Assembly (NCBI GenBank): GCA_009836005.1
Contig: VXWG01000053.1
Location: 45,722 to 109,721, forward strand
Origin: Candidatus Palauibacter irciniicola
GTDB lineage: Bacteria > Gemmatimonadota > Gemmatimonadetes > Palauibacterales > Palauibacteraceae
Length of the DNA: 64,000 bases
Direction: 5' to 3'
Positions 3,684 to 33,018 of the stretch are shown here, in pieces. The position numbers and the translations under genes were made by a program. The stretch's first letter is position 1. The number at the start of each line of letters is the position of its first letter. The notes beneath the pieces were generated by a model that was not told where the DNA came from, ran no database searches, and saw only the letters and a program-made list of their open reading frames with translations.

Positions 3684-4902
3684 CGAGCGGTCCGAAGCCG
3701 CTCCGCGCCGGAGCGGCCCGGCGCGCTGGGTCCTGGGCCTCTTCCCGCTCGCGCTGCTGGCGGGGCTCGTCGCGTTTTTCTTCGGCGCCGATCCCACGGC
3801 CCCCTTCCGGGACGCCTTCCCGCCCGTCGAGGACCTCACGATCGAACGCGTGAGCTTCCCGGAGAACGGCGTCATGCGCGTGCACGTCGTGAACGGCGGT
3901 CCCGAGGCGGCCACCATCGCGCAGGTGATCGTCGACGATGCCTACTGGCAGTTCGAGATCGATGGCGATCCGACCCTGCCGCGTCTCGCCCGCGCCACCC
4001 TCGAACTGGACTATCCCTGGGTCGAAGGTGAACTCCACGTCATCCGGCTGGTGACCTCCACGGGACTCACCTTCGACCGCGAGGTGGCGGTAGCGACGCT
4101 CTCGCCGCGCCCCAACGCGCTTTACCTGACCACTTTCGGGCTACTCGGCCTCTACGCGGGCGTGATCCCCGTCCTCGTCGGCCTGTTGTGGTATCCCTTC
4201 CTGCGCCGGATCGACCGCAAGTGGATCCACTTCTATCTCAGCCTCACCGTGGGCCTGCTGGCGTTCCTCGTCGTCGATGCGTTCGAGGACACGCTCGAGG
4301 CGTCGGCGCTCGTGCCGGAGGGATTTCAGGCCGCCGGGCTCATCGCCGTCGGGGTCATCGGCGCCATCGTCGGCCTCAGGGCCCTCGGTAACCTCGGACG
4401 CGGCCGGAGCGGCGGAGACTCCGCGGGCGCGGGCGGCGGTGGGCCGAGCCCCGGGCTCACGGTGGCGTACCTGATCGCCATCAGCATCGGACTGCACAAC
4501 CTCGGCGAGGGGCTCGCGATCGGGGCGGCCTTCTCCCTCGGCGAGATCGCGCTCGGAAGCTTCCTCGTCATCGGCTTCGCGCTCCACAACACGACGGAGG
4601 GGCTGGCGATCGTCGCCCCCGTCGCGGACCGGCGGCCGGCGCTGCGGCACTTCGCCTTCATGGGCGGCATCGCCGGACTGCCGACCGTCCTGGGGGCGTG
4701 GGCGGGCGGTTTCTCCTACTCGCCGACGCTGGCGACCTTCTTCCTCGCCCTCGGCGCCGGAGCCATCCTGCAGGTCATCGTCGAGGTCACCCGGCTGATC
4801 CGGAAGAGCTGGCCGCAGGGCCTGTTCACCCCCCTCAACGCCACGGGCCTCCTCCTCGGCCTGCTGGTCATGTACGGCACCGCGCTCATGGTGACCGCCT
4901 AG
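3676..4902 (+). CDS. ZIP-family metal transporter with an extra N-terminal TM helix plus roughly 130-aa extracytoplasmic domain
   Basis: ZIP signature helices GLHNLGEGLAIG and ALHNTTEGLAI, and a Gly-rich cytoplasmic loop. The start overlaps the MCO stop by 8 nt (translational coupling). Confidence 0.7.
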   Translation: MSDERSEAAPRRSGPARWVLGLFPLALLAGLVAFFFGADPTAPFRDAFPPVEDLTIERVSFPENGVMRVHVVNGGPEAATIAQVIVDDAYWQFEIDGDPTLPRLARATLELDYPWVEGELHVIRLVTSTGLTFDREVAVATLSPRPNALYLTTFGLLGLYAGVIPVLVGLLWYPFLRRIDRKWIHFYLSLTVGLLAFLVVDAFEDTLEASALVPEGFQAAGLIAVGVIGAIVGLRALGNLGRGRSGGDSAGAGGGGPSPGLTVAYLIAISIGLHNLGEGLAIGAAFSLGEIALGSFLVIGFALHNTTEGLAIVAPVADRRPALRHFAFMGGIAGLPTVLGAWAGGFSYSPTLATFFLALGAGAILQVIVEVTRLIRKSWPQGLFTPLNATGLLLGLLVMYGTALMVTA

Positions 4903-29945: not shown

Positions 29946-30491
29946 ATGGAGACACGAGAGTTCGAGATCAGAACGGAGCGGCTGCTGCTCCGGCCGCACC
30001 GTCTGGAAGACGTGGACGACATATTCGAGTTCGCCCGCGACCCGGAGTGGGCCCGATACCTGCCGGTGCCGGTGCCCTACCTCAGGGAACACGCGGAGGA
30101 GTTCGTCGCGCGGCGGATCCTCACGTCCCCGGACGAGTGGCCGGTGTGGGCGATCGTCCTGGCAGGCAAGGTCATCGGCGGCATCGGCATCAGGATCGAC
30201 GCCGAGCATGCGACGGGCGCACTGGGCTACTCGATCGCGAAGGAGCATTGGGGCCGAGGTCTGACCGTGGAGGCGGCCCGCGCCGTCGTCGACTGGGCGT
30301 TCCGCGAGCGCGGGCTCGCGAAGGTGTACGCGTACGCCGATGCGCGGAACACGTCGTCCCTGAGGGTGATGGAAAAGCTGGGCATGACCCGCGAGGGGAC
30401 GTTGCGCAGCCACCGGACGCTGCGGGAGGAGCGGGTCGACGACGTGTACTACGGACTCCTCAGGGAAGAGTGGGAGAGGGACGAACGCTAA
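29946..30491 (+). CDS. GNAT-family N-acetyltransferase (RimJ/RimL-like)
   Basis: N-terminus LLLRPHRLEDVDDIFEFARDPEWARYL and a GNAT core HWGRGLTVEAARAVVDWAF. Confidence 0.75.
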   Translation: METREFEIRTERLLLRPHRLEDVDDIFEFARDPEWARYLPVPVPYLREHAEEFVARRILTSPDEWPVWAIVLAGKVIGGIGIRIDAEHATGALGYSIAKEHWGRGLTVEAARAVVDWAFRERGLAKVYAYADARNTSSLRVMEKLGMTREGTLRSHRTLREERVDDVYYGLLREEWERDER

Positions 30492-30506
30492 GGTGGCTCG
30501 CGCCGC

Positions 30507-31315
30507 TCAAGGCATATCACCCAGCCCCGTGGCCATCCGCCCCACATATTCTACCACTGGATCCCATACCTCATCGAACTCCTCCTCAGCGCCCGGAGGG
30601 AGCAGGTGAGCCAGGTTGCGCTCCCAGTCAGCGTGGAACTCGTCCCTGCGCTCCAGCAGACGACCCGGGTCGATGACCCCCAATTCGACCTCTCTCGCCT
30701 GCAGTTTCCGCGGGAGGTTGACTCGTACCTTCCGCTCATCCACGTGCTCCAGGAGCGAGAAGATGTCGTACACATCTCTCGATACGGCGTGAAGCCGTTG
30801 ACCGAGAACGGCTCGGACCTTCTCGGACATGACTTCTTCCAAGGCATAACACGTCAACTCGCTCTCTCCGAGATCCTCGGCGTCGGAGAAGGGATGGAAT
30901 AGCGGGCGCGACACGGGGCTGAACGTCAGTACTTCGTTCCGCGTGATGTCGAGGCGAAGACCGGGCGGAGATCCGCCCGAAGCATGCGGTCCGCGCCAAT
31001 AGAGAGTGAACTTGAGGCTCTCGCGCCCGTACTCGTCGTCAATGACTCTCCGCTTCGGTTCCCGGGCCGCGAAGTCGATGCCGCTGGCCCCCTGAACCGC
31101 TGCGAATGCCTCGCCGACCGATTTCTCAAACTCCTCCCAACCAAACCACTGGGTTGCTGTGAAGTCGTCCCACCCTTGAAGATCAGCCGCTTCGCCAGAA
31201 AACGGTGTCCCGCGATTCCTCGGAGGGCCCATCCGAGCGCGTAATCCAACTCTACGATGCGAGGCTCGACACTCGCGGCTCGCGCGCGTCGGCGGATCTC
31301 CGCGTCCTGAATCAT
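30507..31315 (-). pseudogene. abiEii: AbiEii/AbiGii-family nucleotidyltransferase toxin (type IV TA), with the reading frame split between two overlapping ORFs
   Basis: The N-terminal NTase signature RIVELDYALGWALRGIAGHRFLAKRLIFKGGTT is in the frame of track ORF 30926..31441. The DUF1814-like body (SGIDFAAREP...KFTLYWRG...YALEEVMSEKVRAVLG...) is in the frame of track ORF 30507..31445. The junction lies between about 31080 and 31170. Confidence 0.5.
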
Positions 31316-32145
31316 GTCTGCTCGCGGAGCCCTTCCTCCGGGAGATTGATTTCGATGCGCCACCGAGTGGCGATCCGATGAGGCTTTCTCGGAGTGGACG
31401 GATCGAGTCGGCTGATGCCGGCAGTGAGGAGATCCAGCCATTCATTCAGCATCGCCTGCTTCGGAGCATGGGTCAGCTTAACGCTCTCGACAAGAAACCC
31501 GAGCCGCTTCACAACCGCGCCGGAGCCAAAGCGGCGCAGATAACTCGTCATGAGGTCCCAATCGAAGTCGCCATCTCCTCCGAGCAGTGCCTCGCTGACC
31601 TGGGCCACTCCTCCGCTTAGCTCGGGCCTGTCGAGGCAATCTATGATCGTTTTTTCGCGATCCGTGACCTTGACCCGGAATTGTCCGGCACGGTATGCGT
31701 GGCAACCGAAGAACTTCCGAGGCTTCACCCGGACGATCCGAAACCGCATCCCGAGAACCTGCGGTGTGCGGCGTTCCTTGCGGGCGGTCGTCTGCACGTA
31801 CGTAACACGGGGGATCTGTTCGGTGAGGTTCCAGTAGTTGAGGGCAGACCAGTAGCCGACCGTGGCGTGACTCACCAGGTGTCCCGCGATGACGTAGGTG
31901 TCCTCGGTCCAAGTGCGACTGGGGCCGGCCTCGAGTGGAACGATGAGGTACTTCCCCTTCTCAAGACGCTCCAGCCAGCCCTTATCAACGAGTCGTGCCA
32001 ACGCATCCCTGGTCGCCTTGCCTTCGCCAAGCACATCGTACGCATCCTTTGTTGCGAAGATCTGCTTCCCGCTCGCGGCCAAGGTGGTAAGGAATGACGC
32101 CTCGGTGTCGCTGAGGCTTATTATATTACGATACGTCATTACCAC
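31312..32145 (-). CDS. abiEi: AbiEi-family antitoxin / transcriptional regulator (type IV TA)
   Basis: N-terminal winged-helix pattern LARLVDKGWLERLEKGKYLIV. Size 277 aa. The stop overlaps the abiEii start. Lower GC than the flanking DNA. Confidence 0.6.
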   Translation of the reverse strand: MVMTYRNIISLSDTEASFLTTLAASGKQIFATKDAYDVLGEGKATRDALARLVDKGWLERLEKGKYLIVPLEAGPSRTWTEDTYVIAGHLVSHATVGYWSALNYWNLTEQIPRVTYVQTTARKERRTPQVLGMRFRIVRVKPRKFFGCHAYRAGQFRVKVTDREKTIIDCLDRPELSGGVAQVSEALLGGDGDFDWDLMTSYLRRFGSGAVVKRLGFLVESVKLTHAPKQAMLNEWLDLLTAGISRLDPSTPRKPHRIATRWRIEINLPEEGLREQT

Positions 32146-32147
32146 TC

Positions 32148-32219
32148 CTGCATGCGTTAATCACGTATCGAAATGTAATCGATATGGACAGCTTCCGCTA
32201 ATACCGTTCCTGCATGCAG
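32148..32219. promoter_or_regulatory. Nested dyad symmetry in the abiEi promoter: CTGCATGC ... TATCGA-N7-TCGATA ... GCATGCAG
   Basis: Seen directly in the sequence, 3-75 bp upstream of the abiEi start codon, in an AT-rich stretch. Confidence 0.4.
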
Positions 32220-32247
32220 AGCGCCCAAGACGCCGGCGCTGGATCCG

Positions 32248-32973
32248 TCAGTACTTGATGTCGGTTCGGCCGACCGTCATCCCGATGTTGCCGACCCGCC
32301 GGCCCATCGTGTAGTGCTCGCCGCTCCCGGCGGTCATCCCGAAGAAGTCCACGGCGGGCACGATCAGGCGGCCGGCGTCGTCGACCGCGCCCTCGATGGC
32401 GGTCGTCGCCACGACCTCCGCGAGGAAGATCTTCCGCTCGGGCGGCACCTCGAGGGAGTCGAAGATCCGGCACTCGCAGTGGATCGGGGACTCCTCCACC
32501 GTGGGCGCATCGACGACCGTCGCCTCGCCTCTCGTCAGCCCCGAGAGTTCGAACTTGTCGGCCACGCGTCCGGAGTTCATGTCGACGGTGTCGAACGCCT
32601 CGACCATCGATGCAAGCGGGACGTTCAGCACGAACTCGTCGTGGATCTCCAGGAGTTCCCTCGCCTGGTGCTCGAAGGCCGCGCTCACCCCGATCTGGGG
32701 CGGGTCGCCGCTCACGACGAACGTCCACAGCACCGAGATCTCGTCCGGGTCGCCGGGCCGGCCGTTCACGGTGAGCAGGATCGCCGGGACGGGCGGAAGC
32801 ATCGGACCCGGCTCCGCAAGCAACCGGCGAGCCCCGGTGAGCGGCGCCGGTGGCCTACCCCCGCCCACAGGCATCCCCTCGTCGGGTGCACATCCCCAAA
32901 CGGCGGCAACCGCGGCGGCCGCCGAGCCACTCCCCAGAAACCGTCTCCTCGACCAGCCGTCCGTTAATGGCAT
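32248..32973 (-). CDS. Flavin-reductase-like (FMN-binding split-barrel) protein with a Tat signal
   Basis: Tat signal SRRRFLGSGSAAAAVAA. Flavin_Reduct-like core ILLTVNGRPGDPDEISVLWTFVVSGDPPQIGVS. Confidence 0.5.
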   Translation of the reverse strand: MPLTDGWSRRRFLGSGSAAAAVAAVWGCAPDEGMPVGGGRPPAPLTGARRLLAEPGPMLPPVPAILLTVNGRPGDPDEISVLWTFVVSGDPPQIGVSAAFEHQARELLEIHDEFVLNVPLASMVEAFDTVDMNSGRVADKFELSGLTRGEATVVDAPTVEESPIHCECRIFDSLEVPPERKIFLAEVVATTAIEGAVDDAGRLIVPAVDFFGMTAGSGEHYTMGRRVGNIGMTVGRTDIKY

Positions 32974-33018
32974 CTTCTTCACCGCCTCCTCGCGCATAGC
33001 CTGCCGTGCGCCCGGGCA

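Follow-up and report, generated by a model that had tools for sequence, protein, structure and literature searches.

A resident AbiE module with a 49-nt catalytic-centre deletion in its toxin gene and an intact antitoxin gene in a Gemmatimonadota sponge symbiont

What might explain why an uncultured sponge symbiont carries an abiE pair whose antitoxin gene is whole and whose toxin gene is divided between two reading frames? Within the window, i.e. the whole 64,000-nt stretch of DNA that was analysed, the pair is encoded on the minus strand and is flanked by a GNAT gene and a flavin-reductase-like gene. It is a chromosomal AbiE module, made up of an AbiEi antitoxin/repressor and an AbiEii DUF1814 nucleotidyltransferase toxin, and its host is a Candidatus Palauibacter irciniicola-like sponge symbiont (Gemmatimonadota). 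A preliminary description had recognised the two genes, their overlapping stop and start and their neighbours, and this is borne out by the ATGA at 31312-31315, common to the abiEi stop and the abiEii start, and by Pfam and PADLOC matches. The antitoxin gene stands upstream of the toxin gene, with overlap, in all orthologous loci. The borders of the cassette (Table 1) were taken from the clean, empty GNAT-flavin reductase junctions of the related loci L013, L015, L027, L057, L067 and L024, and they enclose abiEi, abiEii and the upstream region only. Neither target-site duplications nor terminal (inverted) repeats were seen at these borders, and there is no integrase or transposase within the cassette or at its edges. 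The flavin-reductase-like gene, 184 aa as called elsewhere but with an open frame that reaches 32997, is syntenic at every related locus. A sigma-70 promoter scan of positions 30400-32400 gave 0 sites, and the two terminator-like matches are within chance expectation.

Table 1. Coordinates of the AbiE cassette, its parts and its neighbours in the window.
Feature	Position	Strand	Basis and remarks
GNAT acetyltransferase gene, 181 aa	29946..30491	+	Pfam PF13302, 4.4e-35; left flank of cassette
AbiE cassette, ~1.75 kb	30497..32243	.	Borders set by comparison with empty sites
AbiEii toxin body (residues 67-285 of intact protein)	30507..31166	-	Stop 30507-30509; out of frame with start codon
49-nt deletion junction, GGTGGGA(C)GACTTC, one base ambiguity	31166..31168	-	Within toxin codon 50; DNA alignment
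AbiEii start and first ~50 codons (MIQDAEI...RLIFKGGT, motif I glycines)	31167..31315	-	PADLOC profile, translation
abiEi, 275 aa from ATG 32139, intact	31312..32139	-	AbiEi_4 and PADLOC profile matches
Candidate AbiEi operator, 22-nt inverted repeat	32120..32179	-	Repeat search
16-nt direct repeat upstream of abiEi	32140..32217	-	88% identity, repeat search
Flavin-reductase-like gene	32248..32802	-	Pfam PF01613, 6.8e-17; right flank of cassette

The division of the toxin over two frames, with the N-terminus in one and the PF08843 body in the other, had likewise been noticed in the preliminary description, and the profile comparison proposed there confirms it. From the toxin ATG at 31315, the N-terminal frame matches positions 1-50 of the PADLOC AbiEii profile (2.5e-12) and past the junction encodes nonsense sequence until a stop at 30926. 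The body frame matches Pfam PF08843 (4.5e-17, 63.2 bits, cutoff 22.5) and positions 66-257 of the same PADLOC profile, and tblastn places residues 67-285 there at 98% identity. Motif III (SEKVRAVLGQR) and motif IV (SRDVYD), both invariant in the homologue alignment, are found in this body and are untranslatable from the toxin start codon; gene callers elsewhere call the body as a 241-aa ORF, P0008. The frame switch, earlier placed between about 31080 and 31170, does fall in that range, but as a single sharp junction at its top end, with the sequence GGGACGACTTC.

The intact state is represented by the orthologue of 285 aa that a closed Ca. Palauibacter irciniicola genome (L005, a 3.42-Mb contig) has at this locus; gene order there is the same as in the window, and DNA identity between the two is 97.7% over 18 kb. 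DNA alignment with the intact alleles of L005 and L006 leaves a clean 49-nt gap in the window, and the missing nucleotides encode C51-L66, CLRKCYFPNYRFSEDL. In the protein alignment, 16 residues are missing precisely where GGT meets DFT; elsewhere identity to intact P0001 and P0002 is 99%, and PADLOC profile positions 51-65 are absent between the two frames. An indel conserved among orthologous loci, which the preliminary description had asked about, is not what we find: the sister strain is intact, and the 49 nt are present in both L005 and L006. A one-base indel was ruled out by the roughly 15 missing PADLOC profile positions and by the 49-nt alignment gap. Microhomology-mediated deletion was considered and rejected, as the ambiguity at the junction is only 1 nt and the junction is not the one expected from a nearby GACCT repeat.

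The segment that was lost is the catalytic centre. The deletion takes out R61, S63 and D65 of the hGGx15DhD centre, D65 being its first aspartate, and puts the rest out of frame, so that motifs I and II (hG[G/S]x15DhD) no longer occur intact in one reading frame. These three residues are the positional equivalents of R63, T65 and D67 of Streptococcus agalactiae AbiEii, in which R63A, D67A and D69A each abolish toxicity and GTP binding (PMC3985639), and T65 serves as phospho-acceptor (bioRxiv 10.64898/2026.01.19.700257). When the intact orthologue is compared with the solved homologue 6y56, similarity is strongest in residues 38-71, where the deletion falls. Intact orthologues are single ORFs of 281-298 aa, and the full motif stands in a single ORF in 113 of the 120 homologues listed, P0001 and P0002 among them. 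Judged from its sequence, the window toxin gene is most simply regarded as a pseudogene, the product of which would have lost its toxicity. Because 16 catalytic-centre codons have been removed, neither frameshifting nor a one-base correction could restore a functional toxin.

In abiEi, by comparison with the toxin gene, nothing is damaged. The protein matches Pfam AbiEi_4 (PF13338, an N-terminal winged-HTH domain) at 8.9e-09, above the cutoff of that model, and positions 2-248 of the 252 in the PADLOC AbiEi model (7.3e-75); with the C-terminal antitoxin domain PF09407 it scores 19.5 bits, just under the cutoff of 22.2. By tblastn it has 100% amino-acid identity to the AbiEi that adjoins the intact toxin in L005. 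A PDB sequence search with AbiEi gave no match at E <= 0.01. The mechanical ORF begins at an alternative GTG at 32145 and encodes 277 aa; an exact-sequence look-up of this longer form was without result, gene callers using the 275-aa ATG start. Upstream, an inverted repeat with arms at 32120-32141 and 32158-32179 and a 16-nt spacer encloses the AGGAG ribosome-binding site together with the start codon of abiEi, one arm being coding sequence. The arms are complementary at 19/22 positions, which was reached in 0/300 shuffles, and eight orthologous cassettes, which diverge in the nearby upstream DNA, all have its core hexamers GATACG and CGTATC unchanged. The repeat is a candidate AbiEi operator, by analogy with IR1/IR2 of S. 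agalactiae (PMC3985639). A direct repeat is also present, the copies of which read GCATGCAGGAGTGGTA and GCATGCAGGAACGGTA on the gene strand and are 62 nt apart; the proximal copy includes the ribosome-binding site, and conservation of the distal copy is limited to the closer orthologues.

It is very probable that a resident AbiE module has lost its toxin to the 49-bp deletion, that abiEi has remained intact, and that the module is being lost piecemeal across lineages. The cassette would have resided for a long time at a variable spot, with DctPQM transporter and GNAT genes on one side and the flavin-reductase gene on the other. The deletion within abiEii would have removed C51-L66 and shifted the frame, creating a toxin pseudogene and leaving abiEi and its upstream inverted repeat untouched, and the locus would now most likely express only an orphan AbiEi that represses its own synthesis. 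The probable order of decay is inactivation of the toxin followed by deletion of the whole cassette, giving the empty sites of sister lineages; the toxin would go first because loss of the antitoxin first would be lethal. Of the explanations offered in the preliminary description, natural inactivation that leaves an orphan antitoxin or regulator is the one that stands, with the amendment that the frame was broken by a 49-nt deletion and not by a single-base frameshift.

How long the cassette has been at this site bears on a reading that was also put forward from the outset, namely that its lower GC content reflects horizontal acquisition. The compositional anomaly is real, and the GC profile of the cassette does differ from that of the flanks, although the cassette value is 60.4-60.7% and not about 57%; the flanks have 68.6% and the whole window 69.1%. 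No other 1.75-kb stretch of the 64 kb has a GC content as low (z = -4.2), and GC3 in the cassette is 72%, compared with 89-95% in neighbouring genes. On these grounds, and from the empty sites in closely related genomes, which do mark the cassette as accessory, it could be argued that a new mobile island arrived recently, with its toxin broken before or on arrival. We regard this as unlikely. Several Palauibacter lineages have an orthologous cassette at this site, in all of them with the same low values (GC 60-62%, GC3 71-76%). Between the window and L016, dS is 0.21 for abiEi and 0.21 for abiEii, compared with 0.21, 0.13 and 0.27 for the flanking DctM, FlavRed and ERG4 genes; between the window and L008 the corresponding values are 0.32 and 0.42 for the cassette and 0.39, 0.31 and 0.34 for the flanks. 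Cassette divergence thus approximates that of the flanking genes, at 0.2-0.4, at a shared site, and dN/dS of abiEi and abiEii between lineages is 0.2-0.3. The absence of an integrase, a target-site duplication or a terminal repeat also argues against recent arrival, as do the searches for a source: no toxin relatives were found among IMG/VR viral contigs, plasmids yielded relatives only at <=37% identity, and no donor was identified. Of the features of a genomic island, atypical composition and presence or absence among relatives are found here, and mobility signatures and divergence decoupled from the flanks are not.

By these sequence distances, the cassette is an old resident of foreign composition, and across Palauibacter lineages it and its flanks have diverged together. 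Since low GC3 persists in a co-diverged cassette, a GC deviation alone should not be taken for recent transfer. One comparison departs from this pattern: between the window and L005, dS is 0.005-0.03 in the cassette (0.005 in abiEi) and 0.065-0.14 in the flanks, which is compatible with recent recombinational transfer within the species. A partial FlavRed duplication in L007 and DctM fragments in L009-L012 both point to recombination. In the light of these rearrangements, and of the window and L005 cassettes being closer than their flanks, the patchy presence of the cassette could also come from interspecies homologous recombination in the highly conserved flanks, and not from vertical inheritance and loss alone.

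Related lineages display other toxin lesions, and these are independent of the deletion in the window. In L014 (Ca. P. ramosifaciens) an in-frame 165-nt deletion has removed toxin residues 24-78, leaving a 230-aa ORF next to an intact 275-aa AbiEi; in L093 there is a nonsense codon at the Y56 position; and in L096 the toxin gives way to transposase-like sequence near residue 44. At the empty sites, the GNAT stop is only 18-54 nt from the flavin-reductase stop, and in the flank-gene tree these sites are nested among cassette carriers. The related loci can therefore be read as a natural loss series, consisting of an intact gene, a catalytic-site deletion with frameshift, an in-frame deletion, a nonsense codon, a transposase-like junction and an empty site.

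Might the orphan antitoxin have been domesticated? The toxin lesions recur independently and all fall in the N-terminal catalytic part; abiEi is full length in the window, in L014 and in L093, the three lesion loci that show the upstream gene; and the L014 lesion is in frame. Selection could be maintaining AbiEi, and perhaps a catalytically dead remnant of the toxin with it, either for a role in regulation or for immunity or anti-addiction when AbiE-bearing elements come in, but we consider this quite improbable. Neutral decay of any toxin-antitoxin pair predicts the same toxin-first loss, antitoxin-first loss being lethal, and the whole cassette has been lost in several lineages, which suggests that the orphan is not strongly needed. 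The deletion in the window is too recent for a test of selection, the window-L005 pair (abiEi dS 0.005) having too few substitutions for dN/dS to gauge relaxed selection on AbiEi since the deletion. We give equally little credence to the more specific proposal that repeated removal of the catalytic segment reflects selection in sponge symbionts for disarming the toxin, with AbiEi kept against AbiE-bearing elements or phages or as a regulator; under selective disarming, the dead 230-aa toxin remnant of L014 may be kept too.

Is the deleted allele real? Indel errors do occur in short-read metagenome-assembled genomes, and the window is a single assembly, being 100% identical to one metagenome scaffold (L001), so that an artefact of that assembly could in principle have split the frame of a toxin that is really intact. 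This sequencing-error explanation, one of those first proposed, is highly implausible. The lesion is 49 nt long, unlike a homopolymer slip, and no flanking repeat of more than 1 nt is present at the junction to mislead an assembler. L002, the assembly of a second BioSample, has the same junction, and so do two Logan assemblies, L003 and L004, which were built independently from raw runs with other software; all three agree with the window at 100% identity along 1933-1951 nt that span the junction. The Logan runs may share BioSamples with the ENA assemblies, and the certain biological samples are two. Intact and deleted alleles may coexist as a polymorphism within the symbiont population of the same sponge. 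Programmed ribosomal frameshifting or recoding, another early suggestion, whereby the overlapping N-terminal and body frames would be joined by a shift at the junction into a continuous 269-aa product, is close to inconceivable, given that the two-frame arrangement is not conserved and the gene is intact in the sister strain, that none of the motif exceptions examined (P0008, P0082, P0116, P0118; seven in all) has a recoding-like two-frame arrangement, and that the fusion would still be without the 16 catalytic-centre residues, including R61, S63 and D65, whose equivalents are essential for toxicity in S. agalactiae (PMC3985639).

The AbiE module of S. agalactiae and Lactococcus is an abortive-infection toxin-antitoxin system (Dy et al. 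2014, PMC3985639), now reclassified as Type VII (bioRxiv 10.64898/2026.01.19.700257). Growth arrest, neutralisation via induced auto-phosphorylation, and phage defence or plasmid stabilisation are known only for the S. agalactiae, lactococcal and Mycobacterium tuberculosis members (PMC3985639; bioRxiv 10.64898/2026.01.19.700257). Like these streptococcal and lactococcal loci, the window locus is bicistronic, the antitoxin gene preceding the toxin gene and its stop codon overlapping the toxin start; it likewise encodes an AbiEi of the COG5340 type, with a winged helix at the N-terminus, and a DUF1814/PF08843 toxin, the intact orthologue of which possesses hGGx15DhD and motifs III and IV, and it has a long inverted repeat upstream of abiEi. 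Unlike them, its toxin is frameshifted and without 16 catalytic-centre residues, and its inverted repeat, which encloses the ribosome-binding site and start codon and has a spacer of 16 nt, differs from the N3/N27 arrangement of the S. agalactiae promoter. Identity to characterised AbiE proteins is low, being limited to a 34-residue stretch with PDB 6y56 and a weak match to 9hlo.

The MenAT systems of M. tuberculosis have a toxin of what is, to judge by shared DUF1814/PF08843 membership, the same superfamily, with a Ser/Thr phospho-acceptor two residues ahead of DxD. A COG5340 antitoxin is found in MenAT only as MenA3, the partner of MenT3, and for S. agalactiae AbiEii itself, identity to MenT1 and MenT3 is just ~16-17%. 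Nucleotidylation of the tRNA acceptor stem is known for MenT toxins; on its sequence, the window copy would not be active. The locus should be annotated as an abiEii pseudogene with an orphan abiEi, and not as a working defence or toxin-antitoxin system or a candidate for recoding, and the 241-aa 'AbiEii' ORF P0008, which derives from the window allele, is a fragment. A further parallel is with decaying chromosomal toxin-antitoxin loci and orphan antitoxins, in which the toxin is dead, the antitoxin is kept, and intact, degraded and absent states are found at one locus. The window locus is a case of this routine toxin-first decay of a resident module: it does not differ in any essential way from toxin-antitoxin decay in general, of which it provides a well-resolved example in an uncultured sponge symbiont.

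The abiEii gene of the window lacks exactly 49 nt found in intact alleles of the same species, with the junction at 31166-31168 (one base ambiguous). The preliminary description had recognized an abiEi-abiEii pair with overlapping stop and start codons between a GNAT gene and a flavin-reductase-like gene, and a toxin in two reading frames; translation and the Pfam and PADLOC profiles agree, with both toxin frames matching the AbiEii profile. The abiEi stop and the abiEii ATG overlap as ATGA, and mechanical calling of the abiEi ORF takes a GTG start 6 bases upstream of the ATG, giving 277 aa. The frame opened by the abiEii ATG translates as MIQDAEIRRRARAASVEPRIVELDYALGWALRGIAGHRFLAKRLIFKGGT, then runs into nonsense sequence and a stop at 30926, and approximately 15 PADLOC AbiEii profile positions are absent between the N-terminal and body pieces. 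With the N-terminal and body pieces joined into one query, a search of a protein collection retrieved two intact homologues of 285 aa, P0001 and P0002, which show 99% identity wherever they align; for P0002, the NCBI annotation is AbiEii/AbiGII family toxin, from Candidatus Palauibacter irciniicola. Aligned with these proteins, the window toxin has a single 16-residue gap, CLRKCYFPNYRFSEDL, which falls between GGT and DFT. In the DNA alignment the intact allele reads GGTGGGAC-CTGCCTGCGG...GAAGACCTC-GACTTCACA and the window GGTGGGACGACTTCACA. The toxin body falls in a different frame because 49 = 3 x 16 + 1, and this deletion is the cause of the frame switch formerly placed between about 31080 and 31170. 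The lesion is a 49-bp deletion of the catalytic site and not a simple frameshift.

Features of the AbiE cassette and its neighbours (window positions)
Feature	Position	Strand	Description
GNAT gene	29946-30491	plus	cassette neighbour
AbiEii body frame	31166 to stop 30507-30509	minus	PF08843 4.5e-17; PADLOC AbiEii positions 66-257, 1.9e-29
AbiEii N-terminal frame	from ATG 31315	minus	50 residues; PADLOC AbiEii positions 1-50, 2.5e-12
abiEi	31312-32139	minus	275 aa; Pfam AbiEi_4 8.9e-09; PADLOC AbiEi 7.3e-75 (profile 2-248 of 252)
Inverted repeat, 22 nt	arms 32120-32141 and 32158-32179		brackets AGGAG ribosome-binding site and abiEi start codon
Flavin-reductase-like gene	32248-32802	minus	cassette neighbour

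The intact reference alleles are L005, on a closed 3.42-Mb contig, and L006, from another strain of that sample. Both occupy the same site without the 49-nt deletion, in the gene order of the window (ERG4-like, flavin reductase, AbiEi, AbiEii, GNAT, DctMQP), and show 97.7% DNA identity to it over ~18 kb; AbiEi of the intact-toxin locus is 100% identical in amino acids by tblastn. Between the window and L005, dS is 0.005 for abiEi and 0.032 for abiEii, compared with 0.065-0.14 for flanking genes, so either the deletion is very recent or the cassette was lately exchanged within the species; with an abiEi dS of 0.005, this pair gives no reading of selection on the orphan abiEi. The neighbouring GNAT gene evolves much faster than the genes around it (dN/dS 0.3-0.44), with 82-87% amino-acid identity between the window and L005, L006, L014 and L016, compared with 96-98% for DctM and flavin reductase. 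Identity of L006 to the window is 97.3% on the side of the cassette that holds the flavin reductase and 95.0% across GNAT and DctM, its GNAT sharing only 82% of amino acids; this drop points to a recombination boundary where the toxin gene has its 3' end.

Could the split frame be an error of sequencing or assembly, or a programmed frameshift? The body frame is recorded as a 241-aa 'AbiEii' (P0008) called on five contigs. One of these loci, L001, matches the window at 100% identity for 20.7 kb and is evidently the same scaffold, hence not independent. L002 comes from a different BioSample (SAMN12347687), and the Logan assemblies L003 and L004 were made independently from runs SRR9841433 and SRR9841444, which may share BioSamples with ENA assemblies; all three match the window at 100% identity over 1933-1951 nt, junction included. 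Two assemblers thus recover the deletion, and at least two samples contain it, which makes the error explanation offered earlier very unlikely. In the 3.6-kb L002 contig, GNAT looks split (2425-2914, orthologous to window 29946-30491), with tblastn residues 1-99 and 99-172 in separate pieces and a gene call of only 85 aa; either another lesion or a fault of assembly could account for this.

The deletion removes key residues of the toxin. The intact orthologue reads F-K-G48-G49-(x15)-D65-L-D67, the hG[G/S]x15DhD arrangement given for AbiEii/DUF1814 by Dy et al. (PMC3985639), whose full motif is present in 113 of the 120 listed homologues; R61, S63 and D65 are lost. From their position in the motif, counting from DxD, these would correspond to R63, T65 and D67 of Streptococcus agalactiae AbiEii, in which R63A, D67A and D69A each end toxicity and GTP binding (PMC3985639) and T65 accepts the phosphate by which AbiEi neutralizes the toxin (bioRxiv 10.64898/2026.01.19.700257). 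Compared with the solved homologue 6y56, the intact orthologue is most similar in residues 38-71, the segment affected by the deletion. Because catalytic residues are deleted, fusing the frames by recoding would still give a dead enzyme, and this, with the finding that the homologues are single ORFs, rules out a programmed frameshift. Natural inactivation is the explanation that stands.

The cassette is the lowest-GC 1.75-kb stretch within the 64 kb (z = -4.2), every other being at least 64%. The anomaly noticed initially is real, although its size was overstated: 57% against 70% had been proposed, and we measured 60.4-60.7%, with 68.6% in ~10 kb on each side and 69.1% for the whole window. 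GC3 is 72% in both AbiE genes and 89-95% in DctM, GNAT, flavin reductase and the ERG4-like gene.

A scan with the DctM protein, one genome per species, gave 80 loci, which were searched by tblastn with six locus proteins. Clean empty sites, with 18-54 nt between the GNAT and flavin-reductase stops, were found in L013, L015 (Ca. P. rhopaloidicola), L067 (Ca. P. denitrificans), L027, L057 and L024. Comparison with them sets the cassette limits at ~30497-32243, enclosing only the two genes and their upstream region, and revealed no integrase, target-site duplication or terminal repeats at the cassette. At this site the cassette is also present in L014 (Ca. P. ramosifaciens), L016, L008, L007/L038, L009-L012 and L040, and its synonymous divergence follows that of the flanks: dS from the window to L016 is 0.21 for abiEi, 0.21 for abiEii, 0.21 for DctM, 0.13 for flavin reductase and 0.27 for ERG4, and to L008 0.32, 0.42, 0.39, 0.31 and 0.34, respectively. 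With dN/dS of 0.2-0.3, abiEi and abiEii are under purifying selection. Orthologous cassettes are all low in GC (60-62%) and GC3 (71-76%), and in a neighbour-joining tree built from flank genes the empty sites fall within groups of carriers. No relatives were found on viral contigs, and plasmid relatives share 37% identity or less. Horizontal acquisition is therefore supported in part only: the cassette is accessory (empty sites) and compositionally foreign, but, given the shared site and the dS that tracks the flanks, it is no recent arrival. The simplest reading is old acquisition, with foreign composition un-ameliorated, then repeated loss. Another possible source of the patchy presence is homologous recombination between lineages within the highly conserved flanks, hinted at by a partial flavin-reductase duplicate beyond the cassette in L007 (L007/L038 8994-9392, residues 52-184), by DctM fragments in L009-L012 (~4260-4860), and by the within-species cassette dS being lower than that of the flanks.

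The DctM-flavin reductase interval is a variable hotspot among related loci: PIN and PhoX genes occur in L009-L012, HicAB or HicB in L008 and L007, IS transposases in L007, and a CRISPR-Cas (Cas1/2/4/3) block adjoins a truncated DctM in L010 (10733-16864). In 14 loci of the DctM scan (L028, L032, L034, L041, L044, L054, L055, L062, L068, L072, L075, L085, L089 and L091), DctM, and usually the adjacent flavin reductase, shows 86-91% amino-acid identity to the window's copy. The labels of these MAGs are Vicinamibacteria, Acidobacteriota, 'Candidatus Marinacidobacterium' or Gammaproteobacteria; assembly is at chromosome level for some, and some group with AbiE-bearing L009 on the flank tree. Either the labels are wrong or the transporter region moves between sponge-symbiont phyla. 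The flavin-reductase frame itself is open for 249 aa (32248-32997, minus), its start mostly called at an internal Met (184 aa) and, in related locus L012, at 250 aa. In the N-terminal extension, ...WSRRRFLGSGSAAAAVAAVWGC..., an apparent twin-arginine signal precedes a lipobox-like Cys; export of a flavin reductase would, to our knowledge, be unusual.

Other toxins of the clade carry lesions independent of the window's deletion. L014 has an in-frame 165-nt deletion (residues 24-78, motifs I and II lost) that leaves a 230-aa ORF beside an intact 275-aa AbiEi, and L093 has a stop codon at the Y56 position (…GGTSLRKC-stop-FPNYRFSEDLDF…) adjoining an intact AbiEi. The L096 toxin is joined at ~residue 44 to another reading frame, one that seems to resemble a transposase C-terminus, and those of L094/L095 start at ~residue 100, preceded by unrelated sequence. 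L093 (1230-1834) also holds a second AbiEi_4 fragment, truncated at 76 aa, with an rve_3 integrase-core ORF after it; a Transposase_mut ORF is located further upstream, on the other strand. IS elements are disrupting the AbiE cassettes of this genome. Together with the empty sites, the lesions make plausible a series from intact cassette to disabled toxin to cassette gone. Loss of the toxin is safe and loss of the antitoxin first is lethal, so neutral decay predicts a toxin-first order; because it already does so, domestication of the orphan AbiEi is a low-probability alternative.

The inverted repeat upstream of abiEi is complementary at 19 of 22 positions across a 16-nt spacer, a score reached by none of 300 shuffles, and 8 orthologous cassettes all keep its core hexamers, GATACG and CGTATC, unchanged, whereas other upstream DNA diverges; one arm is coding sequence. 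A scan of 30400-32400 found no sigma-70-like promoter. In S. agalactiae, AbiEi binds a pair of inverted repeats (11-23 bp) and thereby represses its own promoter (PMC3985639). The 22-nt repeat is, by analogy, a likely candidate AbiEi operator, in which case the orphan AbiEi is probably still autoregulated.

The cassette is an old, syntenically conserved accessory module that is currently decaying. It is a degraded member of a well-known family. The locus helps to get annotation right and illustrates toxin-antitoxin decay neatly, but it will not surprise specialists.
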